Below are positions 56 to 61,216 of a stretch of DNA of 61,216 nucleotides, piece by piece. The notes beneath the pieces are model-generated. The model did no database searches and was not told the origin of the DNA. It worked only from the letters and a program-made list of their open reading frames with translations. Position 1 is the first letter of the stretch, and every line of letters starts with the position of its first letter. Source of the stretch: a virus; the IMG/VR virus record IMGVR_UViG_3300045988_055475, positions 1 to 61,216 of that record; one strand, written 5' to 3'. The position numbers and the translations under genes were made by a program.

Positions 56-606
56 CGGATTTTCCTTCGCTCATTGATATGAATAGGCGTGTCCTTACCA
101 AGCTTAAACATGCTAAGGCTGAATTGAACGCAGACAGGATTGCAGTTATTCAGTTCCATAATGGGTGTCAGAACTTGTCTGGTATTGACTTTGCAAAGAT
201 GTCCTGCACACACGAGGCTGTTCGTCCCGGCCTTAAGCCAGCACAGGCTGACTTCTTAAACTTGCCTGTGTCTGCTTTCTCATATCTTACTAACGCTGCT
301 TTTGGTACAGAACCTAAAGTAATCCTGAACATAGAACGTCTGCGTAAGTTTGATATGTCCACATACACAATGTTGAAGTCACACAAGGTTGTGTCCTTTG
401 CTCTTGCTCCTCTTATATCTGACGACCAAGATGTCTTTGGCTTCCTTGTCGTAGAGTTCTGCAAGCTCCGCGAAGACATAACTTCTGCTGACTTCCAATT
501 CCTTTTAAAGATGTACGCAGAGAAGATAGCTGCACTGCTTGACCGCTCTGACTTAGGTGACCTTGATGAAGAAAGACTCTATAAAGCCCCTTCTGAAGAA
601 GCCTAG
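1..606 (+). CDS. 3' part of the wrap-around first plus-arm gene (hypothetical early protein); 5' end is at 61045
   Basis: Open in frame from nt 1 through stop at 606; ORF track 79..606 is its internal-Met fragment. Confidence 0.55.
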   Translation, partial: TLSDYVRRLAAGKTKKFAADFPSLIDMNRRVLTKLKHAKAELNADRIAVIQFHNGCQNLSGIDFAKMSCTHEAVRPGLKPAQADFLNLPVSAFSYLTNAAFGTEPKVILNIERLRKFDMSTYTMLKSHKVVSFALAPLISDDQDVFGFLVVEFCKLREDITSADFQFLLKMYAEKIAALLDRSDLGDLDEERLYKAPSEEA

Positions 607-19399: not shown

Positions 19400-22300
19400 A
19401 TGGCACTGGATGGTGTTTTGAATACGAATATTTCTGCAGCACAAGCGTATGCTGCTGCTCAGGCTGCACCTGCCTCTTCTGGTGTACAGCCCTATAGTGT
19501 TGTGATGGTCCCGGGCCTTACTGAGCAGGGACCGATGCAAGATACTCTTGCTCGTCGGGCTGCGTACCCGCGTCAGCAGTTTACGACTAGTGTTCCTCGT
19601 AGAGGGCCTAGTCAGGCTGATCTTGGACCTGCCTACGTAAGCACAGTACCTGATGAAGTTCCTGTGCACATGGCTGTTCCGGCTTTTAGTGGTTACTCTC
19701 AACCGTTTGAGTATCAAGAACCGAAGCCAGAACATGGTGAATATGTAAAGGGTTTCCTTCGTTCTATTCCTCAGACACAAGCTCTTGTTGCTGCTGGTGG
19801 TGCTGCTCTTGCTGACCTTATGGGTCATGAACAGACTGCTGGTGATTTGATGTACTATGCACAACAGAAGCAAGAAGAAGCACAAGCTCCTGAGCTGAAA
19901 GCTGCTGTTGAATCTTACAAAGATGTAGACAGTATTCAGAAGTTTGGTGATTACTTTGCTAGTCTTCTTGGCGAACAGACATTGAATGTAGGTATGTCTC
20001 TGACTGGTGGTGGCGTAGGTGCTGCTGCGGGTAAGAGAGTACTTGCTGGTGCTTTGTCTGGTGCTATTGAAAAGAAGACTGCTCAGCTTGTAGCTTCTGG
20101 TGTTGCTGAAGCTGAGGCTCGTGCTGCTGCTACTAAAGCTGTGACCGCTACTGTTGGTGCACAGATTGGTGCAATGGCTCCTGAGTTTGTACTGAACACT
20201 GGTGAGAACTACTCTGGTAACTATGCTGAGGGAGGGTTGCTTACTTCTAATCCCGGCATGGATATTGGTACCGGTATCTTGCAGTCTGCTGTTACACTGC
20301 TTGGCGGTGAAAGTCAACTGCTTCGTAAGATGACTGGCGTTAAGGTACCTGATGCTGTTGAACGTACTTTCAAGGAAAAGCTCAAGGCTTCTGCGTTGTC
20401 TCTGCCCAAGGCCATGATTGGTGAAGGTGCAGAAGAATACACACAGGAATGGTTGGGTGCAGTAAACAGTATGATTCAGGACGGACGTGCTCAGCTTACT
20501 GCTGATGACTTCGACCGTATGATGGAGGCTGGTATTGCTGGTGCTCTTGTTGGTTCTGCCTCTGGTGGAGCTAGCGTTATGGTTGACATGTTCAAGCATT
20601 CACCTAAGACAGACATTCCGTATGTTAACCCAGACCAGACGCCTCTTGAACTTCAGACTAAGTTTGAAGAAGAGCTAACTAAGATTGATCCCTTCACTCA
20701 GATCTCTAAGGGTGAAGGCATCATGCGTGATGCTATTCGTGTAGAAGCACAGAAAGCTGTAGCTGCTTCTGAAGAATCTTTTGCTCGTGCTCGTAATCCT
20801 ATTGTCAATGCTTTGCGTAAGACAAAGGATGAGTTGACTACTGCTCGTGCAGGTACGTCCCCTAAGTACGCTCTGCTTGCTACGCAAGAAGCAAAGGACG
20901 CGTACATCAAGAAGCTTGAACGTGCCCAGCAGAAGTATGCTGCCCAGCTTGCTCGGCTTGCTCAAGCAGAGCGTGAAGACATTAAGCAACGTAAGCAACA
21001 GTTTGAGAAGGATCTTTCTGAGTCTGATAAGAAGGCTCGTAAGGCTTTCCGTGAAACTGTAACAGAACGCTTTAAGAAGCTCGGCTATGATACCAACCTT
21101 ACGGCTGAACAGATTGTTGATGACCGTAGGTATCAGGAAGCTTTGTTTAAGAAAGACCCGGTCAAGTACACTGAGATTATAAACAGCATTCAAGATACTC
21201 AGCAGTACGTACAGCGTAAGCTTAATCGTGCTGACGAACGTATGTCTAAGCTGCACGCACGTAGAGCTGAATACAATGTATTCCTTGAACTCTTGCAGCA
21301 GAATGCTATTCCGTACAGCGAACGCCAGTATGAGTTTGTTACAAGTGAGCTTGCTCGTATTGACAAAGAACTTGCACAGACAAATAGATTGAAGGCAGAA
21401 GTTAGAAAATCTGCCGTCAACCTTGCTCGTTCTGCTGCACGTTCACAGGACTTGTCTGAGATTCAGACGAACATGGATGCCTTGTTTGCTAAGGCAGATA
21501 GGCTTGACCCTGCTGTTCCTTTTGAACTTGACTTGCGTAAGCAGTTGAAGGATCTTGCAGACAAGGAAACTCAAGACCGTATTGATGCTCTGCTTAAGAA
21601 TGCACGTGCTTTGCGCAGTACAGCCAAGCTGACCAACGATCCCAATTATACGTGGGATGCAGACTTTGCTGACTGGCAGGCTGCACAGATGGGCTCCTCT
21701 AATCAGCAGGCTGCTCTGCCTAGTGCTGATGCTTTCTCGCAGAAGTATGGTGCTCTTCAGCAGAATGTTGCCCTTGAGCAAGCTGCTGCTCTGAACAATC
21801 AGATTGATCGTGACAGAGTTGCTGCTGACCAGTACATGCGTAACATGATTGCTGAACAACAGCAGCGTGCGTATGAAGCTTCTCCTGCTTATCAGGCGCA
21901 GCTTAAGGTGGCTCAGGATAAGGCTAGCTATGACAACGCTTTGGATGGTAACATCCCTGCACGTCAGGCTATTCCTCAAGAGACTTCTCAAGCTCGTCGT
22001 GACCTTGAGTCTGAACAGCTCAGGCGTATGTACAAGCAAGAGCAGCGGTCCAAGCAGATTCGTAATGACATTGAAGTACAGCGCCAGTCCTTTGAACGAT
22101 ACACTCAGCAGGAAAAGGAAGTAGACTTCCAGCTTGCTTCTGAAGCTACGCAGCAGGTGTACGACTGGATGAAGAACACGTTGACTCAGCTTCCCGGCTT
22201 GAAGGATGTTGTGTCTATCTGTTCTTCTGTCACTGACAGCAACGTGCCTACTGCTGTGCATGATGCTCTTGTTAACCTGTCCTTTAAGAGTACAGACAAG

Positions 22301-25300
22301 AAGGCTATTCCGCAGGCAGTGTACTGTGATGGGAAGATCTATGTGTTCGCTGACCGAGTAAAGTCTAAGGCACAGGCAGTACGTCTGCTTATGCACGAAG
22401 GTGTTGCTCACTATGGTCTGCGTGCTATCATGACTCCTCGTCAGTTTACTGGATTCATGGCTGCTGTCTATCGTGATGCTTACGACACTCCTCTGTGGAG
22501 AGAGTTTGAACGTCAGCGTCCTGCATACGAGAATGCTAATGACCTCGTTCGCACAGAAGAGTTCATTGCTTGGATAGCTGAACGTGAGTCTCCTAAGTCT
22601 TTGCTTGAACGTCTCCCTGTCATTCGTGACCTGTACAAGTTTATTCGTAAGCTGTATCAGAAGTTGTTTGGTGTAGACGGTTATGTTACTGAAGCTGATG
22701 TCAAGGATGTCCTTGCTGCTTCTGCACAGAATCTTGCCAGCACCAAGCCTCAGGGTGTTTCCTCTGGCTACACTATCTGGGGTCGTGCTACGTACATGAG
22801 CTCGGCTATGAATAACGTGGCTCCTCAGTACGAACGTGTTGACCTTGTGGGCCCAGACGCTTTTGCTGCTCCATATGGTTGGGGAACTTACTTCTCTCAT
22901 CCTACGAAGCTTGCTGATTACTTCAGGAGATTCAACAACAAGCAGTCTGGTCTTCCCGGACAGATCTATAAGAACTACGCTCCTTCCTTTGAACAGTTCA
23001 TGAACTGGGAACGTCCTCTGTCTGAACAAAGATATGTTGCAGAACATCTCACCCGTTTGTTCAAGCAGATGCCTCCTCAGCAGGTTCCTGCACAGGATGG
23101 TATGCATATCCAGTTCTTGGGTAAGGACATTGGTGTCTTCCTTGACAAGAATGAACTTACTCAGTTTATGAAGAACAAGAGATACCTTGAACGTGTGACT
23201 GGGCAGGATGTGTACGAATACCTTGCTTCTCAGCTTAATGACACTAAGCAGATCTCCAGTATGCTGAGAGACTTGGGTGTGGCTGGTACTACCTTTAACT
23301 ACAACAACTCTCAGAGCTATTGTTTGTTTGAAGGTGATGATATCAGTCATACTGCTCCTGCATACAGTTCTCCTGAAGTTCGCTTCATGATAGCTGAAGA
23401 TACTACTTACAGTGACATGCCTCCTCTCTACCTTGAAGAGTGGAAGCGTGCACAGATGAGACAGCAGAACTGGAATGGCTTTATCGCTAAGGTAAGAAAC
23501 CTCGGTAAGTCCGTGGGCTTGGACGGTAAGCTAGTTTCACACACTGGCTTTGAAAGACTCGTAGATGGTATGTACGACAAGTATCGTCGTGTTCAGATCG
23601 TGCAGAGGTATATCAAGGATACGATTGGTAAGAATGTCATTACTCCTGCTACGAACATCTACCGTCATTTGACTGGTATGGTGAACAGGATTAACGAAAA
23701 GCGTACTGACATCATGAACCAGAAGTTTGCTCCTCTTTGTGAAAAGATTGGTAAGCTTGACATCCCTGCTGTGAAGGAAGCTCTTGACGATCTGCGTAAG
23801 GCTGGTCGTAAGATTACTGAGCAGGACAGGGTCAATGCTATCTGGTCTGCTCTTGACGAGTTCCTTCTGGCTCGACATGCGCTTGAACGTAACGCTGAAG
23901 TTAACAGGCGGTATCGTGGTAAGAATAAGCTAGAGTCTCCTTCTGGTCTTACTGACCAGCAGGCACAGGCTATCATTGACAAGTACTCTGACGTACCGGG
24001 TATGAATGAGATTGCTGCACAGTTTGACCAGCTTGGTAGATACCATCTGGACTTGCTGGATAAGTATCGCATTGTACCCAAGACTCTTACTGACAAGCTG
24101 CGTGCTACCTATAAGCACTACGTCCCGTTGAAGAACTGGGAAGAGTTCGTCGACGATCTTGATCCTGACTATGCACACAAGAGATCTAAGGCTGGTATTT
24201 CTATGGGCGGTCGGGAGTTGTTGAAGAAGGCGAAGGGGCGGGAAGGTCTTGCAGAAAGTCCTTCTACACACCTGATGTTGCAGATCATGGATACTATCAA
24301 CATCGGTGAGAAGAACGATGTGTCTCGTCGTCTGCTCAACCTCGTTCGAGAAGCTCCTAATGAAGAGCTGTGGGAGATCGCTACGGATAAGAATGAGAAG
24401 GGACAGCCCTACTTCCGTATGTCTGAGAAGGGAGACGGTACTCTTTACTATGTGAGGAAGTCGCATAGTCTTGAAGGTAAAGACTACAAGTTCATCAACG
24501 TAATTGATGAAAAGGGTAACCGTGTTCGTATTGCTATCAAGGACGCGGCTCTTGCTGCTGCCTTGCGTAATGAGAACAACCTTGAGACAGGCGCAATCAT
24601 TAACAACATTCGTAAGCTGACACAGAAGTTCGCTGCTCTGTACACTACGTACAACCCTGTGTTTGCTATCAAGAACTATCCTCGAGATATTCAGACTGCT
24701 ATCCTTAACGTAGGTAATGTGATCTCTGAAGCACAGGCAAACAACCTGCTTGGCAAGGAGAACAACATTCGTCAGCGTATCGTCAAGGACGCTATGTCTA
24801 TGCGCATGGTCAAGTTCCTCTGGGCAGAACTGAACGGTAAGGAATACGGCGGTAAGGATGCAGCGTACCTCAAGGAGATGTACAAGAAGTTTACTGAGTC
24901 TGGCGGGCATACTCGTATGTTCCTTGCCAACGACTACAAGACTATGTACAAGGATGTACGTGAGCTGTCAAAGCAGAAGGGTAAGTTTAAGGAAACTCTT
25001 GACAAGGCTCTTAAGTATCTGGACACTATTTCTGACGTGTCTGAAAATGCTACTCGCTTCTCTGTGTTCGTTGCTCTGACTCAGGAGTTTGATAACCATC
25101 TCGCTCAGGAAGCTAAGCGTAATGGTTGGTCTGCTAAGCAGATGCAAGAGATGATGGAAACTGCACATCAGCGTGCAGCTAACGAAGCTCTGGAGATCAC
25201 GGTTAACTTTACTCGTAAGGGTTCGTGGGCTCCGTTCTTCAACAGTCTGTGGGCATTCTCCTCTGCTAACATCGGTGGTAACGTGCGTATTCTGCGTAAC

Positions 25301-26383
25301 CTCTGGAGACGTGGAGACAGCTTTGCTAACAACGCAAAGAGAACTGCTGCTTACATGGCTTACTCAATCGCTTGTGGTGTTCCTCATGCTCTGTTGTGCA
25401 GATGGCTTATGGGAGATGACGATGACGGTGTGAGCAAGTATGATAAGATTCCTGACTACATCAAGGACAGTAACCTTATCATCCCTGCACCTTTTGGTGA
25501 CGGTGGCTACGTAAAGATTCCTCTGCCCTATGGGTACAACATCTTCTGGGTAGCTTCGAATGCAATAGAAGGTGTGATCAGCGGACGCACCAAACCTTCC
25601 TCTGCTGCTGCTAAAATCTTTGGTGCTTCCTTTGATAACTTCAACCCTGTTGGCGGAGCTTCTTTGTTGAACTTCATGCCTACTATCTTCCGTCCTATTA
25701 GTGAAGTAGTTGCTAACCAGAACAGCTTTGGTTATGCTCTTATGCCTGACAGCACACACAGCTTCAAGGGTGAAGTGCCTAACAGTCAGAAGTACTGGGG
25801 TACTAATCCTATGTGGTGTCGTGTTGTGGCAGAGACGCTGAACTCTTGGACGTTCGGGTCTAAGGTTGAGAAGGGTTGGATTGACGTGTCTCCTGAAACC
25901 ATTCAGCATCTTACTGAATCATACATGGGTGGTCTTGGTAGAGTCATCACTCAAGCTCTTAACATAATGGTTTCTCCTGTTACTGGTGCTCCTGTTGAGC
26001 TGAAGAATGTACCTCTTGCTAGTTCTTTCTTCGGCAAGGTTGGTTATGGTGATACACTTAATGAGTACAGTAAGGTTCGTAATAAGATTCAAGTAGGTTT
26101 GAATGAACTTGACCTTGCTCAGAAGGATACGACTCTTTCTCCTGACGAACGTACTGCGATTAGAAATAAGAACAGAACTATTCAGCAGCTCAAGGGCAGG
26201 TATGATTCTGTCAACGCTCGCTTGAACAGTGTACGTAAGCTTGAGAAGTTGAATGAAAAGAACAACAGGTCTTCGGGTGCTAAGTACTACGAAGAAAAGG
26301 AACGGCTGCAGAAGCGCAAGGAATTCTTGATGAAGGAACTTACTCGTGTGGCTAAGCAAGCAGGTCTTGACTACAGGGATTAA
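19400..26383 (+). CDS. Giant 2327-aa protein: candidate internal virion / ejection (injected) multi-domain protein
   Basis: Single uninterrupted 6.98-kb ORF after the tail genes; long coiled-coil and Ala/Gly-rich segments; no polymerase motifs recognised by eye. Confidence 0.8.
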   Translation: MALDGVLNTNISAAQAYAAAQAAPASSGVQPYSVVMVPGLTEQGPMQDTLARRAAYPRQQFTTSVPRRGPSQADLGPAYVSTVPDEVPVHMAVPAFSGYSQPFEYQEPKPEHGEYVKGFLRSIPQTQALVAAGGAALADLMGHEQTAGDLMYYAQQKQEEAQAPELKAAVESYKDVDSIQKFGDYFASLLGEQTLNVGMSLTGGGVGAAAGKRVLAGALSGAIEKKTAQLVASGVAEAEARAAATKAVTATVGAQIGAMAPEFVLNTGENYSGNYAEGGLLTSNPGMDIGTGILQSAVTLLGGESQLLRKMTGVKVPDAVERTFKEKLKASALSLPKAMIGEGAEEYTQEWLGAVNSMIQDGRAQLTADDFDRMMEAGIAGALVGSASGGASVMVDMFKHSPKTDIPYVNPDQTPLELQTKFEEELTKIDPFTQISKGEGIMRDAIRVEAQKAVAASEESFARARNPIVNALRKTKDELTTARAGTSPKYALLATQEAKDAYIKKLERAQQKYAAQLARLAQAEREDIKQRKQQFEKDLSESDKKARKAFRETVTERFKKLGYDTNLTAEQIVDDRRYQEALFKKDPVKYTEIINSIQDTQQYVQRKLNRADERMSKLHARRAEYNVFLELLQQNAIPYSERQYEFVTSELARIDKELAQTNRLKAEVRKSAVNLARSAARSQDLSEIQTNMDALFAKADRLDPAVPFELDLRKQLKDLADKETQDRIDALLKNARALRSTAKLTNDPNYTWDADFADWQAAQMGSSNQQAALPSADAFSQKYGALQQNVALEQAAALNNQIDRDRVAADQYMRNMIAEQQQRAYEASPAYQAQLKVAQDKASYDNALDGNIPARQAIPQETSQARRDLESEQLRRMYKQEQRSKQIRNDIEVQRQSFERYTQQEKEVDFQLASEATQQVYDWMKNTLTQLPGLKDVVSICSSVTDSNVPTAVHDALVNLSFKSTDKKAIPQAVYCDGKIYVFADRVKSKAQAVRLLMHEGVAHYGLRAIMTPRQFTGFMAAVYRDAYDTPLWREFERQRPAYENANDLVRTEEFIAWIAERESPKSLLERLPVIRDLYKFIRKLYQKLFGVDGYVTEADVKDVLAASAQNLASTKPQGVSSGYTIWGRATYMSSAMNNVAPQYERVDLVGPDAFAAPYGWGTYFSHPTKLADYFRRFNNKQSGLPGQIYKNYAPSFEQFMNWERPLSEQRYVAEHLTRLFKQMPPQQVPAQDGMHIQFLGKDIGVFLDKNELTQFMKNKRYLERVTGQDVYEYLASQLNDTKQISSMLRDLGVAGTTFNYNNSQSYCLFEGDDISHTAPAYSSPEVRFMIAEDTTYSDMPPLYLEEWKRAQMRQQNWNGFIAKVRNLGKSVGLDGKLVSHTGFERLVDGMYDKYRRVQIVQRYIKDTIGKNVITPATNIYRHLTGMVNRINEKRTDIMNQKFAPLCEKIGKLDIPAVKEALDDLRKAGRKITEQDRVNAIWSALDEFLLARHALERNAEVNRRYRGKNKLESPSGLTDQQAQAIIDKYSDVPGMNEIAAQFDQLGRYHLDLLDKYRIVPKTLTDKLRATYKHYVPLKNWEEFVDDLDPDYAHKRSKAGISMGGRELLKKAKGREGLAESPSTHLMLQIMDTINIGEKNDVSRRLLNLVREAPNEELWEIATDKNEKGQPYFRMSEKGDGTLYYVRKSHSLEGKDYKFINVIDEKGNRVRIAIKDAALAAALRNENNLETGAIINNIRKLTQKFAALYTTYNPVFAIKNYPRDIQTAILNVGNVISEAQANNLLGKENNIRQRIVKDAMSMRMVKFLWAELNGKEYGGKDAAYLKEMYKKFTESGGHTRMFLANDYKTMYKDVRELSKQKGKFKETLDKALKYLDTISDVSENATRFSVFVALTQEFDNHLAQEAKRNGWSAKQMQEMMETAHQRAANEALEITVNFTRKGSWAPFFNSLWAFSSANIGGNVRILRNLWRRGDSFANNAKRTAAYMAYSIACGVPHALLCRWLMGDDDDGVSKYDKIPDYIKDSNLIIPAPFGDGGYVKIPLPYGYNIFWVASNAIEGVISGRTKPSSAAAKIFGASFDNFNPVGGASLLNFMPTIFRPISEVVANQNSFGYALMPDSTHSFKGEVPNSQKYWGTNPMWCRVVAETLNSWTFGSKVEKGWIDVSPETIQHLTESYMGGLGRVITQALNIMVSPVTGAPVELKNVPLASSFFGKVGYGDTLNEYSKVRNKIQVGLNELDLAQKDTTLSPDERTAIRNKNRTIQQLKGRYDSVNARLNSVRKLEKLNEKNNRSSGAKYYEEKERLQKRKEFLMKELTRVAKQAGLDYRD

Positions 26384-41711: not shown

Positions 41712-41739
41712 AGTGCCTTGCTTGTTCAGGAGTTAAGGT

Positions 41740-42040
41740 CAACCTACTAATTCAGAAGAAATATAGTCTTAATGTTCAAGGCATTAGTTACCTATAGTAC
41801 TTATGAATTAAGAGTTAGGTTTAGACTTAAGATATTATACCTAATTAAAGTACTTACGAAGTAGGTTATTTAAGATATTATACTTAAGTAAGGTTAATTA
41901 ACAGTTAAGTTAAACTTAATTATATTATAATACTTAATTAAATTAAGTCAAGTTAACTTATTAAGTAATATAATAAATAAACCTAAAGGTTAATCTATTA
42001 GGTTTACTTATTAAGTAACCTATAGTACTATATGTATAAG
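41740..42040. repeat. AT-rich iteron block between helicase and primase genes: candidate replication origin
   Basis: Direct repeats 'acttattaagtaa' (x2), 'taagatattatac' (x2), 'cctatagtact' (x2), 'aggtttaS' (x2) in a roughly 300-bp ORF-free, very AT-rich tract. Confidence 0.5.
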
Positions 42041-42079
42041 ATCAAATACCTGCCTGTCAAGTACCTGTCCGCACATTTG

Positions 42080-42367
42080 TTAGGCGGCTATGGCGTAATC
42101 GAACGACTTCATCCTGATGTTGTCAAGATAGCCGAGGCTCGAAGTGTTGTACGTGTGATACTTGCGAACAGTGGAACCACACTTAGGACAGGGCATGTCC
42201 TTGAGCTTGTCAGCGAAGAGAGTTTCACAGTCTTCACACACGACCAGTTGCATGTCGTAGAAGTTCGACAGCTGGTTACGTTTACGAGACAGGGTACGCT
42301 GCACTTCGTAACCGGAAGAGGAAGAAGACGGTACGAAAGAGACAGTCTTGTCGTTGAAGCTAAGCAT
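42080..42367 (-). CDS. Small Zn-ribbon protein (95 aa)
   Basis: 'CEDC...CPKC'; an alternative overlapping frame (42109..42372) was judged less likely. Confidence 0.4.
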   Translation of the reverse strand: MLSFNDKTVSFVPSSSSSGYEVQRTLSRKRNQLSNFYDMQLVVCEDCETLFADKLKDMPCPKCGSTVRKYHTYNTSSLGYLDNIRMKSFDYAIAA

Positions 42368-57641: not shown

Positions 57642-58450
57642 AAGTCAACTCCTGATTTAAACAACTTGACTGGTTGCAAGGGTATAACGCACCCAAGGCA
57701 CCCCATTCCCCTGCAACTGTCAAACTGTTTACAGACGGAACACCTTTATCTATTATTTATAGCCGTTGTACTGTCTCCAACGCAGGATGGAACGCATCCT
57801 TTTAACGCCAATACTCTACGGCTGTAACTTTTCTAAGGTTACTTTCAGTCTACCCTTTGAGCCGACTTATCACGTTGCTAGGTTGTAAATCTGCAACATC
57901 GTTTACGGTTTATCGGTAGACTATAGGCTTGCTGTAAGTAGGACTTGCCCCTAACCTACCTTGCACAGTGCACAAGGTCGCCAGTTAGCTTGTTCCGTCC
58001 TCTTGCTTATACGTCGCACCTAGGGATAATAGGAGTATATAAGCAAGCCCCGGCTTTTCTGTACGTCCCTACCTGCTAAACTACTACTTACACAAGCAAC
58101 GCATCTAAGACACTTTGCTAAGAGTGTAAGCCTACTATAGTTAGCTTTACGGCAGAACACGCATAACCTGCAAGCTCCATGCATAGCTCACCTTTCGGCT
58201 TGCCATAGCTGCGCCTTGTACTTGTGTGCAGCTAGTGCAGGAAGATACCATAAGCTGATACCTTTCGAAGTGCATCCGCACTTCTCGACTTCATCCGAAG
58301 TCTCTCAAGTTCTTTAACCGACTCCGCAAGCAAACGTTTTCATGCTGCTATGTTCTCGTTCCCACGACGACCTTGTGGCGGTCGTGGTACTATCCTTTGC
58401 AAGCTCCGCTTGCTAAAGGCGACCTCTATTGGAGTAGGTTTTCCCTCTTT

Positions 58451-58500
58451 CGTTGAAAGTGTTCTCTCATAAGTCATTGCGCTTGTCAAGTACTTTTGCC
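58451..58500. repeat. Repeat element copy A ('cgttgaaa'-N23-'cttgtcaagtactttt')
   Basis: Shares both end motifs and their spacing (31 vs 32 nt) with copy B at 58679-58727. Confidence 0.45.
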
Positions 58501-58559
58501 TTTCTTGTATGTGTCGTCGTTGCTCATTTTTCCGGCTGGCAACTACTCTTTAGAACGCC

Positions 58560-58607
58560 TTAACGTTCGCAAGCAAAGAACAGCTAAACGCTGTTTAACG
58601 TTCGCCT
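58560..58607. repeat. Two perfect 11-bp direct repeats 'ttaacgttcgc' flanking a 6-bp-stem hairpin 'aacagc-taaac-gctgtt'
   Basis: Exact repeats at 58560-58570 and 58597-58607; each contains palindrome AACGTT. Confidence 0.5.
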
Positions 58608-58678
58608 ATTTCTGGTTTCCAGACACAAAGGCAAGTACTCAACAAAGACGCTATTCGCTTTTGAAAGAACACATTCAT

Positions 58679-58727
58679 CGTTGAAATGGACTCTACGCGG
58701 CTTATGTGGCCTTGTCAAGCACTTTTT
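58679..58727. repeat. Repeat element copy B ('cgttgaaa'-N24-'cttgtcaagcactttt')
   Basis: See copy A. Confidence 0.45.
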
Positions 58728-59496
58728 CAACACTTTCTAAAAGAACGTATCGTGTGGGATGTACCCTTCCGATGCCTCTTATATAGCAAGCCTTGTGCCA
58801 AAACGTAAGTAGTTGAAATTATTGACTATTGGTTATCCTATAAGTTCAACTTTTTGTACCTGCTAGGTGCGCCGGCAGGTGCTTGTGGAGCTTATGGAGC
58901 CATGCTGTGCATAGTTCTATAAGTACTACAGGTACTTAGATCATGGTTCAAATATTGGTACGTTTGGCACGCATGAATACAATAAGTTGAACTTATGTGT
59001 AAACATGTGTAATTATTCAACCTTTTGACCATGCTAACCATAAGTAGTTGTTTTAGTTAGCTTTTGGTTACGTTTGGATACTATTAGTTGCTGTTGATAA
59101 CCATTAGCAGCTATTTAGTGCTATTGATTACCATTGCTGGCAGGTTTGGGGTCTTTAATCCTACCCACAAGCTAGGTTATAGGTTACCAACACTGCTAGG
59201 AGTAACACTTCAAACCTTAGGAGTCACACTGTACTTTCTTTCACAAGGGGGAGGGGGTCAAACCCTACCCGTGGGACACAGCGGAGGCACGGGGGTACAG
59301 ATGACACAGACTTCGCTCGCAACTTTTTGGGAGCTGAATGACTTCATCAGAATCATTTCTATATACGTATAGTACTCATAGTTCAGAACAAGTCTAGGAG
59401 TCATGCGTACATACCTCCAGCTATATTCCAGCATACGTAACCAACAGTAGTCAGGAGTAGTCACTAGCTACCGGCCCGGGCCCTACCTCTTGGCTC

Positions 59497-59569
59497 ACTA
59501 AAGTTTTTTAACTTTTTTTAAACTTTTTTCACTCAAACCCCTTGACTTTTGAAAAAAACTGATTATCAT
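59497..59569 (+). promoter_or_regulatory. Strong sigma70-type promoter with upstream phased T-tracts (UP/bent-DNA-like): -35 TTGACT 59542-59547, 16-bp spacer, -10 TATCAT 59564-59569
   Basis: Three T6-7 tracts spaced about 10-11 bp apart (59504-59530) immediately upstream of near-consensus hexamers. Confidence 0.5.
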
Positions 59570-59583
59570 ATTCATATGAATAT
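59568..59583. promoter_or_regulatory. Perfect 16-bp palindrome ATATTCATATGAATAT overlapping the -10/+1 of the 59542 promoter (operator candidate)
   Basis: Sequence equals its reverse complement. Confidence 0.55.
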
Positions 59584-59898
59584 GAAATCACGGAGTGATT
59601 CGCAGGCTAGCTGCTGTGATTGATTGGATGATTAATTGTCTGAGATCTGTCTCAGTTCACATGCAGAGTATTTGTACTTGAGCACTACATCTGCTTCTCA
59701 TGTGAACACGCTCTCTTTAGGTTGTGAGCGAGCCTCAAAGCGAGCGAACTACTTAGGTAGTTTGAGTTGATTAGGACATGGGAGAATAGTATCTAATGAC
59801 CTGTAACCTTCTCTCCGACTTATTAGAACTAAGCTACGCTTCGTAGTCAATAGGGCCGAGCGCCCCCATCAAATCTGAACACTAAGATATTAGTTGAC

Positions 59899-59966
59899 CA
59901 AAAGAAAAGCCCCCGTGCTAAATAGGATCCATGCTTTGCATAGTGCCTATAGTAGCCGGGGGCTTG
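59899..59966 (-). terminator. Intrinsic terminator for the 296-aa minus-strand gene (long-loop hairpin)
   Basis: 'aagcccccg'...'cgggggctt' stem preceded on plus strand by 'aaaagaaaa' (U-tract on minus). Confidence 0.5.
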
Positions 59967-60009
59967 TTGCGTTTAGAGCACCGTAAAGGCGTAGCCTTGG
60001 AGGTGCGAC

Positions 60010-60900
60010 CTATGTGTCTTTCTTATCTATAGCTAGCTTTCTTGGTTGACTTAAAAGATGCTTACTTGCTTCTTCCTTGGTTATCTTACCAAACATATAA
60101 TCGTACTTGACCTTGTTACTTGTAAAGTACTTGCTTGCTACATACTTAAGTGGTACCTTGATGAGTTCATCTGTGTAAGCTGCCTTGACATAAGGAGGTG
60201 TCTCAAAGCCAAGGTAGACCGTGTTCATGTGTTCACGTTCTGTACCAAAAGGTTCTATGATGTTACTCTGTGCCATCTCTATGTACTCGTCTGTATACCC
60301 TGTATATTCAAAGGTCTTGTCAAAGACTTGTTGCATATACAAAGCACCTCTACGCCAGTGTCTTGCATAGTAGTACGGATGGTTAGTTGCAGACACTTTC
60401 CATGTAAACCATGTACGTTCATGTCCGGGAAAGAAGTCAGTTGTTCGTGGCACAACCACAGCCTTAAGCTGAGGGTATTCTCTAAAGACAAAGTACCTCT
60501 TCTTAGGTGCACGAGACACACGCTTAGTCACACCAAAGCAGTCACGTGTTACTTGTGTCAAAGGTCTGCTGTACGTCTTCTCTTCAACAGTGATGACTGC
60601 AAAGTCTTTAAGGTCGATACCTCCTCTGTTCTTTAAACCGTTAGACAAACACCAGAGCATAACGTTAACCATTCTGCTTACTTCACTTTCAGGCAGATAG
60701 TTAAAGAAGATGTTCAGGTCATTTACAAGGTCACCTTTTGTGTACAGACCTCTGTCCCACTGTCCTTCTACTTCACACTCTGACAAACCCTTCTGACACC
60801 TACAGTTAGGGATCTTATAAGGTTCAGGTGTGTCTTCGTTGAGAATGGGATTCCTCCGCCACTTTAATTTCCTACGGTCTTTTTCTAGAAGCATCGACAT
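60010..60900 (-). CDS. First gene of the minus arm: hypothetical protein (296 aa), candidate early/host-takeover function
   Basis: Clean ORF directly downstream of the P(-) promoter at 61023-60995; aromatic- and Arg-rich. Confidence 0.6.
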   Translation of the reverse strand: MSMLLEKDRRKLKWRRNPILNEDTPEPYKIPNCRCQKGLSECEVEGQWDRGLYTKGDLVNDLNIFFNYLPESEVSRMVNVMLWCLSNGLKNRGGIDLKDFAVITVEEKTYSRPLTQVTRDCFGVTKRVSRAPKKRYFVFREYPQLKAVVVPRTTDFFPGHERTWFTWKVSATNHPYYYARHWRRGALYMQQVFDKTFEYTGYTDEYIEMAQSNIIEPFGTEREHMNTVYLGFETPPYVKAAYTDELIKVPLKYVASKYFTSNKVKYDYMFGKITKEEASKHLLSQPRKLAIDKKDT

Positions 60901-60939
60901 CTTATTTCACTTTTTCTACATTTTTTTTACTATAACCCC

Positions 60940-60967
60940 TTGACAAAATTCATATAGTTCTTATACT
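60940..60967 (+). promoter_or_regulatory. P(+) promoter: -35 TTGACA (60940-45), 16-bp spacer, -10 TATACT (60962-67)
   Basis: Consensus -35 and 5/6 -10, positioned 78 nt upstream of ATG 61045. Confidence 0.55.
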
Positions 60968-60987
60968 ATATTTTAGGTTATAGTATA
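60962..60987. promoter_or_regulatory. 9-bp inverted repeat 'tatactata'-N8-'tatagtata' overlapping the P(+) -10 (operator candidate)
   Basis: Exact reverse-complement arms. Confidence 0.5.
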
Positions 60988-60994
60988 CATAAAT

Positions 60995-61023
60995 ACTATA
61001 ATCACTAATTGACACTTTGTCAA
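60995..61023 (-). promoter_or_regulatory. P(-) promoter read on the minus strand: -35 TTGACA (61023-18), 17-bp spacer, -10 TATAGT (61000-60995). Its -35 lies inside the palindrome 'ttgacactttgtcaa' (61009-61023).
   Basis: Consensus hexamers with optimal spacing; the 15-bp palindrome provides TTGACA on both strands. Confidence 0.55.
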
Positions 61024-61044
61024 GAGGTAAAACAGAAGAAAGTT

Positions 61045-61216
61045 ATGGATAGTCAAATTTTACTAGGGATCATTAATGGTCTGTCAAGCTTAGTAAAAGA
61101 CGCTGACTATATATCACTTGCAATGCTGGGAGGGACTGCATTCATTATCCATGAATGTGCAACCTTATCTGATTACGTTAGGCGTTTAGCTGCTGGTAAG
61201 ACGAAAAAGTTTGCTG
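61045..61216 (+). CDS. 5' part of the first plus-arm gene; it continues in frame into 1-606 across the circular junction (about 240 aa in total, hydrophobic N-terminus, function unknown)
   Basis: ATG at 61045 preceded by 'agaagaaag'; reading frame is continuous with position 1 and the listed ORF 79..606; lies downstream of the P(+) promoter at 60940-60967. Confidence 0.55.
   Translation, partial: MDSQILLGIINGLSSLVKDADYISLAMLGGTAFIIHECATLSDYVRRLAAGKTKKFA
61162..61216. repeat. Second copy of the 55-nt terminal direct repeat (same as 1-55)
   Basis: Exact identity to positions 1-55. Confidence 0.85.

Follow-up and report, generated by a model that had tools for sequence, protein, structure and literature searches.

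A pair of facing predicted promoters at the junction of two phage arms

The window studied here is the whole of IMG/VR virus record IMGVR_UViG_3300045988_055475, 61,216 nucleotides long, and our subject is the 144-bp gap (24% G+C) that separates the first genes of its two oppositely oriented arms. Within this gap lie two near-consensus promoter sequences that point towards each other, P(+) and P(-), with inverted repeats over and between them (Table 1). The plus-strand arm starts at 61045, passes across the origin and extends to ~26.85 kb (~27 kb in total), carrying the virion genes; the minus-strand arm is the replication arm. The window is a circular assembly with a terminal direct repeat of 55 bases, positions 1-55 being identical to 61162-61216. 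This repeat is an assembler overlap, the contig being circular or circularly permuted with a true length of ~61,161 bp. Because the last 55 bases are also the first 55, the gap truly lies between the first genes of both arms, as the initial annotation of this DNA had assumed.

Relatives of the window are human-gut metagenome contigs of 61-63 kb; the group is uncultured yet common in human-gut assemblies, with dozens of such contigs. The nearest phages found with the portal and the terminase were marine or proteobacterial podophages at only 31-37% identity, and no cultured relative was closer. A megablast search of 59500-61216 against phage records gave no match, and no lysogeny genes were seen in the parts of the phage examined. 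Shine-Dalgarno motifs precede most genes, which fits a host with canonical promoters.

Table 1. Positions of the promoter elements, repeats, genes and further promoter-like sites (numbering of the window)
Feature	Position	Strand	Description
P(+) -35	60940-60945	+	TTGACA, inside the extended motif AACCCCTTGACAAAAT
P(+) -10	60962-60967	+	TATACT; 16-bp spacer to the -35
P(+) predicted start	60974-60976 (near 60975)	+	7-9 nt past the -10
P(-) -35	61023..61018	-	TTGACA (plus strand TGTCAA)
P(-) -10	61000..60995	-	TATAGT; 17-bp spacer; AGTGAT immediately before
P(-) predicted start	60987-60989 (G at 60988)	-	inferred
9-bp inverted repeat	60962-60970 / 60979-60987		TATACTATA-N8-TATAGTATA; perfect; left arm is the P(+) -10
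Second inverted repeat	60978-60986 / 60993-61001		TTATAGTAT/ATACTATAA; 9 bp
Central inverted repeat	60976-61003		GGTTATAGTAT-acataa-ATACTATAATC; left arm over the predicted start overlap, right arm the P(-) -10 region
T-tract element	60921-60937		T-tract + TACTATAACC; the central element in a third copy, inverted, adjoining the P(+) -35 on its upstream side
15-mer	61009-61023		ttgacactttgtcaa; 6-bp arms, non-symmetric 3-nt centre
Central repeat, lineage F			ACTAGTGT/ACACTGTA
Central repeat, lineage G			GGGAAC/GTTCCC
Central repeat, lineage I			ACGTACC/GGTGCGT
Central repeat, lineage J			GTATGTA/TACATAC
First gene of the minus arm	60010-60900	-	296 amino acids; HU/IHF-type DNA-binding fold at ~residues 55-150, long N- and C-terminal extensions
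Intrinsic-terminator-like hairpin	59900-59964	-	GCCCCCG...CGGGGGC, then TTTTCTTTT; 45 nt past the stop of the HU-like gene
Minus arm	60900 down to ~26.9 kb	-	family-A DNA polymerase, DnaB-like helicase; replication arm
First gene of the plus arm	ATG 61045-61216, continuing 56-606	+	240 amino acids; hydrophobic N-terminal segment YISLAMLGGTAFII
Contents of the plus arm		+	240-amino-acid GAF-like protein, large terminase, SU10-type portal, 2327-amino-acid LPD38 protein
Promoter-like site	59542-59569	+	AACCCCTTGACT-16-TATCAT; context resembles P(+)
Promoter-like site	58690-58718	-	GTGCTTGACAAG-17-TAGAGT; inside the non-coding stretch; kept in lineages A, B, D, F
Promoter-like site	57728-57756	+	TTTACA/TTAACA-17/18-TATTAT; directly before the best-conserved structured block; kept in A, B, D

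P(+) and P(-) each match 11 of 12 positions of the sigma70-type consensus, with spacers of 16 and 17 bp, and all motifs of the near-consensus, face-to-face pair described in the initial annotation were found in place. The predicted starts, placed 7-8 nt past each -10 at ~60975 for P(+) and ~60988 for P(-), cross each other, so that the 5' ends would overlap by ~14 nt; the initial annotation had put the crossing at ~12 nt. By the predicted geometry of the hexamers, each promoter lies beyond the start of the other, the face-to-face arrangement in the sense of Beck and Warren. Given the crossing of the predicted starts, and a geometry that is kept in all ten lineages described below, the earlier proposal that each transcript runs through the opposite promoter is supported.

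Sites of this quality are rare. Genome-wide, only four sites matched the consensus at 11 or more of 12 positions, where shuffles give 0.74, and this pair makes up half of them. When the 144-bp spacer was subjected to 20,000 dinucleotide shuffles, one site scoring at least 11/12 arose in 1.1% of them, and sites at this level on both strands arose in a single shuffle (0.005%). The looser pattern TTGACA-N15-19-TAnnnT occurs 14 times in the genome against 4.2 expected, chiefly on the coding strand of the minus arm; the 8-mer CTTGACAA has 19 genome copies against 3.7 expected, and TTGAC-N-RTGATTAT occurs twice against 0.02 expected. The signature CTTGACAA-N9-RRTGAT-TATAnT is common to other conserved intergenic promoters of the phage group and provides a working promoter signature for annotating these phages.

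Conservation of the promoter geometry in ten lineages

The same gene junction was assembled from ten lineages, A to J, lineage A being that of the window. They were drawn from IMG/VR, from homologues of the minus gene and their contigs, from a metagenome scan, from homologues of the plus gene, and from distant homologues obtained in a representative search. Across the ten, identity of the minus gene product to that of the window falls from 100% to 28%. In every lineage a plus gene of 228-245 amino acids and the HU-like gene of the minus strand are divergent, and CTTGACA boxes face inwards on both sides, with distances between the outer edges of the -35 boxes of 84, 84, 85, 82, 86, 78, 91, 84, 95 and 80 bp.

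P(+) is readable as TTGACA-16-TATAyW in all ten lineages (final base T in six), with CTTGACAA retained at its -35 throughout. The P(-) -35 is likewise kept in all ten as TTGAC followed by A, T or G, and abuts the start codon of the plus gene in lineages C, D and F. A 17-bp P(-) spacer was found in seven of the ten; lineages C and D, with a spacer of diverged sequence, match TTGACA-17-TATAAT perfectly at P(-). The seventh base past the P(-) -10, at the predicted start, is G in lineages A-D. Hexamers and spacing have thus been conserved while the spacers diverged, which is the pattern expected of real promoters, and P(+) and P(-) are well supported by their sequences as predicted promoters for the primary sigma factor of the host. 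The predicted start overlap ranges from 9 to 26 nt across the ten lineages, and the persistence of this face-to-face geometry fits mutual exclusion or interference.

An inverted repeat of changing sequence between the predicted starts

An inverted repeat lies between the predicted starts in every lineage (n=10). Its central element GGTTATAG (60976-60983) is invariant in lineages A-E, where the repeat takes the form GGTTATAG/CTATAAyC and the partner in the P(-) -10 region reads CTATAATC, TTATAATC, TTATAACC or CTATAACT. The same place, directly past the P(+) -10, is occupied by repeats of unrelated sequence in F, G, I and J (Table 1). Arms measure 6-11 bp, and the spacing between them varies from 4 to 12 nt between lineages. 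When the central segment was folded and compared with 1000 shuffles per lineage, the combined hairpin p value was 8e-4. A hairpin lies 0-3 nt from the predicted plus start in nine of the ten lineages and at the predicted minus start in G, H and I, the stems being weak and the 5' ends predicted; in G and I the repeat falls wholly within the overlap, so that both predicted RNAs would begin with it. Mismatches between the arms are mostly G.U-compatible on the plus RNA, which is weak evidence that the plus transcript begins with an RNA stem.

Two repeats over the -10 boxes had been reported for the window. The repeat over the P(+) -10 is perfect over 9 bp, as the initial annotation had it, and the TATACTATA/TATAGTATA arms would form a 5' hairpin of the predicted minus transcript. 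The repeat over the P(-) -10 is also present; its length is 9 bp and not the 7 bp first reported. A perfect 9-bp repeat with a spacer of 3-12 nt occurs in 1.8% of spacer shuffles, and two such repeats in 0.36%. The near group and lineage H (ACTATATA-N6-TATATAGT) retain repeats of the TATACTATA/TATAGTATA type, and lineage D has lost them. Given the unrelated repeats of F, G, I and J, these particular sequences cannot be regarded as the conserved feature.

The T-tract with TACTATAACC is invariant in lineages A-D and may serve both as a UP-like tract for P(+) and, within the minus leader, as the 3' side of a long-range stem. Folding of the minus leader, in which ACUAUAACC pairs with GGUUAUAGU, gave z-scores of -3.6 to -1.4 in lineages A-E.

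The 15-bp palindrome listed in the initial annotation is present at its site, and only the half that forms the P(-) -35 is kept. A 6-bp repeat like its arms occurs in 53% of spacer shuffles, that is, at chance level. Relatives have TTTATC, TTTAGC, TTGACT, TTGACC or TTTCAA as its plus-strand half, a position that the plus gene's ribosome-binding site occupies in lineages C and D; the conserved part is the minus-strand half, TGTCAAG. The 15-mer TTGACActtTGTCAA was therefore rejected as a functional element and is regarded as incidental. Inspection by eye suggested an IHF consensus, WATCAANNNNTTR, within AATCACTAATTG; with two mismatches, it was also set aside.

A probable one-gene minus unit encoding an HU/IHF-fold protein

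The first gene of the minus arm encodes a 296-amino-acid protein with a conserved PNCRCQ motif. A profile search with this protein yielded 19 relatives, those from metagenomes being 180-311 amino acids long, while tblastn against 50,697 phage records found no match. In an alignment of 25 homologues, 15 members match Pfam PF00216 (best E 5.5e-8), and the profile of this family matched HU (7e-6) and IHF (5e-5) in the PDB. An AlphaFold2 (AF2) model built on a deeper alignment that included distant homologues reached a predicted local distance difference test (pLDDT) score of 82.6, compared with 48 for the seven-sequence alignment used before these were added. With this model, the top 40 Foldseek matches were all IHF or HU (probability 1.0, TM to target 0.6-0.78), in agreement with a fold made of a two-helix base and a beta-ribbon arm. 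On the strength of its predicted structure, the 296-amino-acid product has an HU/IHF fold flanked by long extensions and is a putative DNA-bending protein.

A G+C-rich hairpin followed by a T-run stands in the same place after this gene, with different stems, in lineages A, B, C, E and F, and is absent in D. The initial annotation had P(-) expressing an arm; in most lineages examined it faces one gene and then a strong intrinsic terminator, so that P(-) is most likely the promoter of a one-gene unit and not that of the replication arm. The replication arm has promoter-like sites of its own, at 58718, 45594, 41951, 38164, 28589 and 27370.

The plus unit leads into the virion arm

The 240-amino-acid product of the first plus gene gave a GAF match (E 7e-4) under the Pfam cut-off and matched one PHROG of unknown function. 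The protein is 55-99% conserved across the group and always adjoins the promoter region. Neither flanking gene matched a helix-turn-helix (HTH) or repressor family in searches with Pfam and PHROGs. Elsewhere in the plus arm, no other intergenic plus-strand site scored at least 10/12, and no terminator-like site was seen from P(+) to the terminase gene. Since no other strong plus site and no terminator past P(+) were found, P(+) appears to serve the entire virion module of ~27 kb as its main promoter, as far as the sequence can tell.

Two observations on virion-arm genes may be recorded here. Near the end of the arm lies a 2327-amino-acid open reading frame (ORF; 19400-26383, plus strand) with a large polyvalent protein-associated domain, LPD38, at its C-terminal end (E 4e-40). 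The large terminase of lineage B (contig L041, 1395-3803) has 802 amino acids compared with 471 in the window and shows a faint LAGLIDADG match, which suggests an intein or a homing-endonuclease insertion.

Non-coding stretch and other promoter-like sites near the junction

From the terminator region to the next minus gene (57642-60009, 2.37 kb), no ORF of at least 70 amino acids was found on either strand. The ORF-less stretch is kept in all relatives with enough flank, appearing as gene-call gaps of 2.2-2.5 kb in three contigs (L041, L044 and L071). Substitutions fall on the three codon positions in the numbers 119/124/130, without periodicity, compared with 6/5/34 in the HU-like gene. The stretch aligns at 72-75% between lineages, whereas the adjoining gene, whose protein is 62% identical, gives no blastn match. 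In a block at 57750-57960, 64 consensus pairs were found, of which 21 show compensatory double changes, together with several invariant G.U pairs on the plus strand. Rfam searches at gathering and permissive thresholds and a tRNA scan returned nothing, including in 57642-60009. An alternative genetic code was rejected as an explanation, since read-through of single stops gives no convincing ORFs and there is no codon periodicity. The stretch is a candidate for one or more large structured non-coding RNAs, to judge from these sequence patterns, and as a conserved, covarying neighbour it may prove more unusual than the promoter pair.

Lineages A, B, D, F and G share the plus-strand promoter-like site at 59542, in the form TTGACA-N-RRTGATTATAyy. 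Past it lies a cassette (59576-59964) of 250-570 nt, variable even in close relatives and with no consistent ORF, that may be a small RNA; its end is the same terminator hairpin that closes the convergent HU-like gene. Transcription reading through from this site would run antisense to the HU-like gene, in the direction of P(+).

Elsewhere, a second pair of promoter-like sites was noticed that face each other with overlapping -10 boxes, consisting of TTGACT-16-TATAAT on the minus strand (41951..41924, 11/12) and TTAACA-17-TATATT on the plus strand (41898-41926, 10/12). It lies in an AT-rich 370-bp gap (41712-42080) upstream of the DnaB-like helicase gene that is full of TTAAGT/ACTTAA-type repeats and might be an origin of replication, a further control region or both.

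A proposed mutually exclusive promoter pair

From the layout of the gap we infer a switch. Specifically, we propose, giving the proposal an even chance, that P(+) and P(-) are mutually exclusive face-to-face promoters of host type, that the palindromic overlap supplies 5' RNA hairpins and/or a protein site, and that the HU-like protein is a candidate modulator. RNA polymerase covers DNA from about -55 to +20. With such a footprint and starts that cross by 9-26 nt, two open complexes could not coexist, and each elongating polymerase would have to pass over the opposite promoter; if the promoters are used, competition or interference follows directly from the geometry. P(-), which has the optimal 17-bp spacer, would win first, and the HU/IHF-like protein would be made. 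This protein, or another early product, might then act on the flexible, TA-rich palindromic core and lower P(-), whereupon P(+), with its 16-bp spacer, would be released into the virion arm. The palindrome would give the plus RNA, and in several lineages also the minus RNA, a 5' stem-loop, and it could also be a protein or bend site centred on both start points.

Several observations weigh against this proposal. The use of both promoters and their start sites are sequence predictions, and P(-) has a poor -10, or a -10 at poor spacing, in lineages E and J. Single hairpins are weak (-2 to -11 kcal/mol), several being no better than shuffles. When pairs of the central hairpin were counted in lineages A-F, 89% pairing was found and covariation did not exceed that of shuffles, the arms being simply conserved; the case for a hairpin or palindrome thus rests on the replacement of whole stems in F, G, I and J. 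The 296-amino-acid protein of the window on its own gave no Pfam or PHROGs match, and since it falls below Pfam thresholds its assignment to HU rests on the family profile and the model. What ties this protein to the site is adjacency and co-inheritance, and proteins of the HU/IHF type usually read the shape of DNA, not palindromes. A virion promoter of sigma70 consensus could also simply be constitutive.

One alternative is an explanation without any switch, in which ordinary constitutive promoters of host type are packed into a short gap, the repeat forms an mRNA-stabilising 5' stem-loop and interference is a side-effect; the face-to-face layout would only give each gene a leader of 50-90 nt. 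The place of the hairpin at the predicted plus start, and at the minus start in G, H and I, would suit such a role, as would the G.U-compatible mismatches, a repeat whose position is kept while its sequence has turned over completely, and nearby genes without a recognisable sequence-specific repressor. However, the hairpins are short and AU-rich, several of them indistinguishable from shuffles, and the explanation accounts neither for a distance that forces overlap in ten lineages, where back-to-back promoters would fit the same gap, nor for a constant partner that is a single DNA-bending protein gene with its own terminator. We therefore regard it as possible, if on the unlikely side. A version of the view taken in the initial annotation, in which a dimeric, sequence-specific repressor binds palindromic operators, the 15-bp TTGACActtTGTCAA among them, and so chooses the arm, draws on the overlap of the repeats with both -10 regions and both starts. 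The bio operon works in this way. So does the control region of the Ecl18kI restriction-modification system (PMC2760811). Turnover of the repeat could then reflect co-evolution with a regulator gene in the flank. Yet the 15-mer is neither conserved nor above chance level, no HTH-type regulator was detected in either flanking gene, the repeat spacing varies between lineages (4 to 12 nt), and P(-) serves one gene, not an arm; this version we consider improbable.

The central element could instead be read by sigma factor. As a -10-like sequence, GGTTATAGT might cause P(+) polymerase to pause at ~+5 to +10, in the manner of lambda PR', or might be the -10 of a second plus promoter that lacks a -35, and the copy at 60937..60929 would act likewise on the minus strand. 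TATAGT does lie at ~+5 to +10 of P(+) in lineages A-E, where GGTTATAG stays invariant while its pairing partner varies; the element closely resembles the P(-) -10 context GATTATAGT (GGTTATAAT in lineage D), it is present in three copies of alternating orientation, and the virion arm, like that of lambda, appears as a single long unit read from one promoter. Nothing -10-like, however, stands at this position in lineages G, I and J (GGGAAC, ACGTACC and GTATGTA), for which reason the pause or second promoter was rejected as a general explanation. Moreover, the element has neither a TG extended -10 nor a -35 at 17 bp, no terminator was seen downstream of P(+) for an antiterminator to overcome, no Q-like protein or Q family was found among the proteins scanned, and with 15 copies in the genome, where 10.9 are expected, the motif shows no enrichment elsewhere. 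The chance that sigma reads the element in this way is accordingly slim. It is highly improbable that the sites are not promoters at all but chance matches in AT-rich DNA (the spacer has 24% G+C), or sites for genome ends, packaging or replication. A break in a low-coverage contig had raised the latter prospect: contig OPXI01008882 (L070; 2250 nt, 1.7x coverage) matches the window at 60611-60974 and departs from the phage sequence exactly at 60974/60975, where the predicted plus start and the edge of the central repeat coincide. The DNA beyond the break is Fusobacterium-like, with proteins 74% identical to a gut Fusobacterium metagenome-assembled genome (MAG), and mismatched in G+C, so that the break was treated as a probable assembly chimera at AT-rich sequence and not as a genome end or an integration junction. 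The shuffle tests, the conservation of hexamers and spacing in diverging spacers, and the occurrence of the same motif upstream of other genes on their coding strand also argue against sites of another kind.

Within the proposal of mutually exclusive promoters, a more specific and speculative version, which we think rather doubtful, is an early-to-late switch of a lytic gut podophage: the HU/IHF-fold protein would bend or occupy the palindrome at the start sites, shut its own promoter and free the virion promoter, with palindrome and protein co-evolving. Such co-evolution would explain why the repeat has turned over completely while the identity of the protein falls from 100% to 28%. From its place 1.4 kb upstream, the promoter-like site at 59542 is directed across the bidirectional terminator and then the HU-like gene, and it could feed antisense or read-through transcription into the switch. 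If the proposal is true, the whole virion module would be under one host-type promoter, interlocked with the promoter of a phage-made nucleoid-type protein, and the gap would be a very compact timing device made of parts that the host polymerase reads directly.

Relation to known promoter arrangements

Face-to-face divergent promoters, to which the present layout can be assigned, form a known class in a classification that reportedly goes back to Beck and Warren in 1988. The architecture itself is thus already known, and it is the regulatory story that we propose. In E. coli, bioA and bioBFCD have overlapping face-to-face promoters with a palindromic operator, bioO, as reportedly described by Otsuka and Abelson in 1978. 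bioO is a 40-bp operator of BirA that represses both promoters together. The junction studied here resembles the bio operon in its overlapping facing promoters between divergent genes and in an imperfect palindrome over both starts, an arrangement in which one site can govern both promoters; unlike bioO, the repeat has only 6-11 bp per arm and its sequence turns over between lineages. In pIN-pOUT of IS10/Tn10, the transcripts overlap by ~35 nt and the system acts through antisense pairing with the ribosome-binding site. Facing promoters, 5'-complementary transcripts and one RNA that starts with a stem-loop are found in both cases, whereas the overlap here is 9-26 nt and, in lineage A, far from either start codon.

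In coliphage 186, the starts are ~62 bp apart, both promoters can be occupied and interference hits a 'sitting duck' complex; the choice, lysis versus lysogeny, is set by CI and Apl. The promoters of coliphages 186 (pR/pL) and P2 (Pe/Pc) are described as face-to-face switch promoters in the passages of PMC3675496 that cite the original work (Dodd, Kalionis & Egan 1990; Callen, Shearwin & Egan 2004). As in these phages, two facing promoters for host RNA polymerase stand here at the junction of oppositely oriented gene sets, with transcripts that would cross the opposite promoter; in 186 and P2, interference is part of the logic. Unlike those of 186, the predicted starts cross by 9-26 nt, so that occupancy itself should be exclusive, and the arms are a virion arm and an HU-like gene, with no CI-type repressor seen. 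In the Ecl18kI restriction-modification system, the promoters of the divergent genes, which lie within the intergenic region or beside it, face each other and compete at the stage of complex formation (Protsenko et al. 2009, PMC2760811). The facing promoters of divergent genes are shared with our junction, regulation in Ecl18kI combining promoter-complex competition with a protein at one promoter. It differs in that the regulator is a methyltransferase acting on a defined operator and one start lies opposite the start codon of the partner; nor is it a phage early/late junction, and no palindromic 5' overlap is described for it.

Histone-like proteins are known from phage promoter switches, such as TF1 of SPO1, an HU homologue on early promoters, p6 of phi29, and IHF at Pe/Pc of Mu. 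In phi29, p6 acts with p4 at the divergent A2b/A2c-A3 region, where the promoters are back-to-back, not face-to-face. The likeness to SPO1, phi29 and Mu lies in a DNA-bending nucleoid-type protein at a compact divergent promoter region, of the early/late or the lytic/lysogenic kind, a role for which the protein described here is a candidate; that of SPO1 is likewise phage-encoded and of the HU family. Unlike these proteins, ours has 296 amino acids, with large extensions to the HU fold, and would be transcribed from one of the two predicted promoters. Judging from the sequence, what is distinctive of this junction is apparently the very short palindromic overlap, and the setting of a one-gene HU-like unit against the entire virion arm of an apparently lytic podophage.

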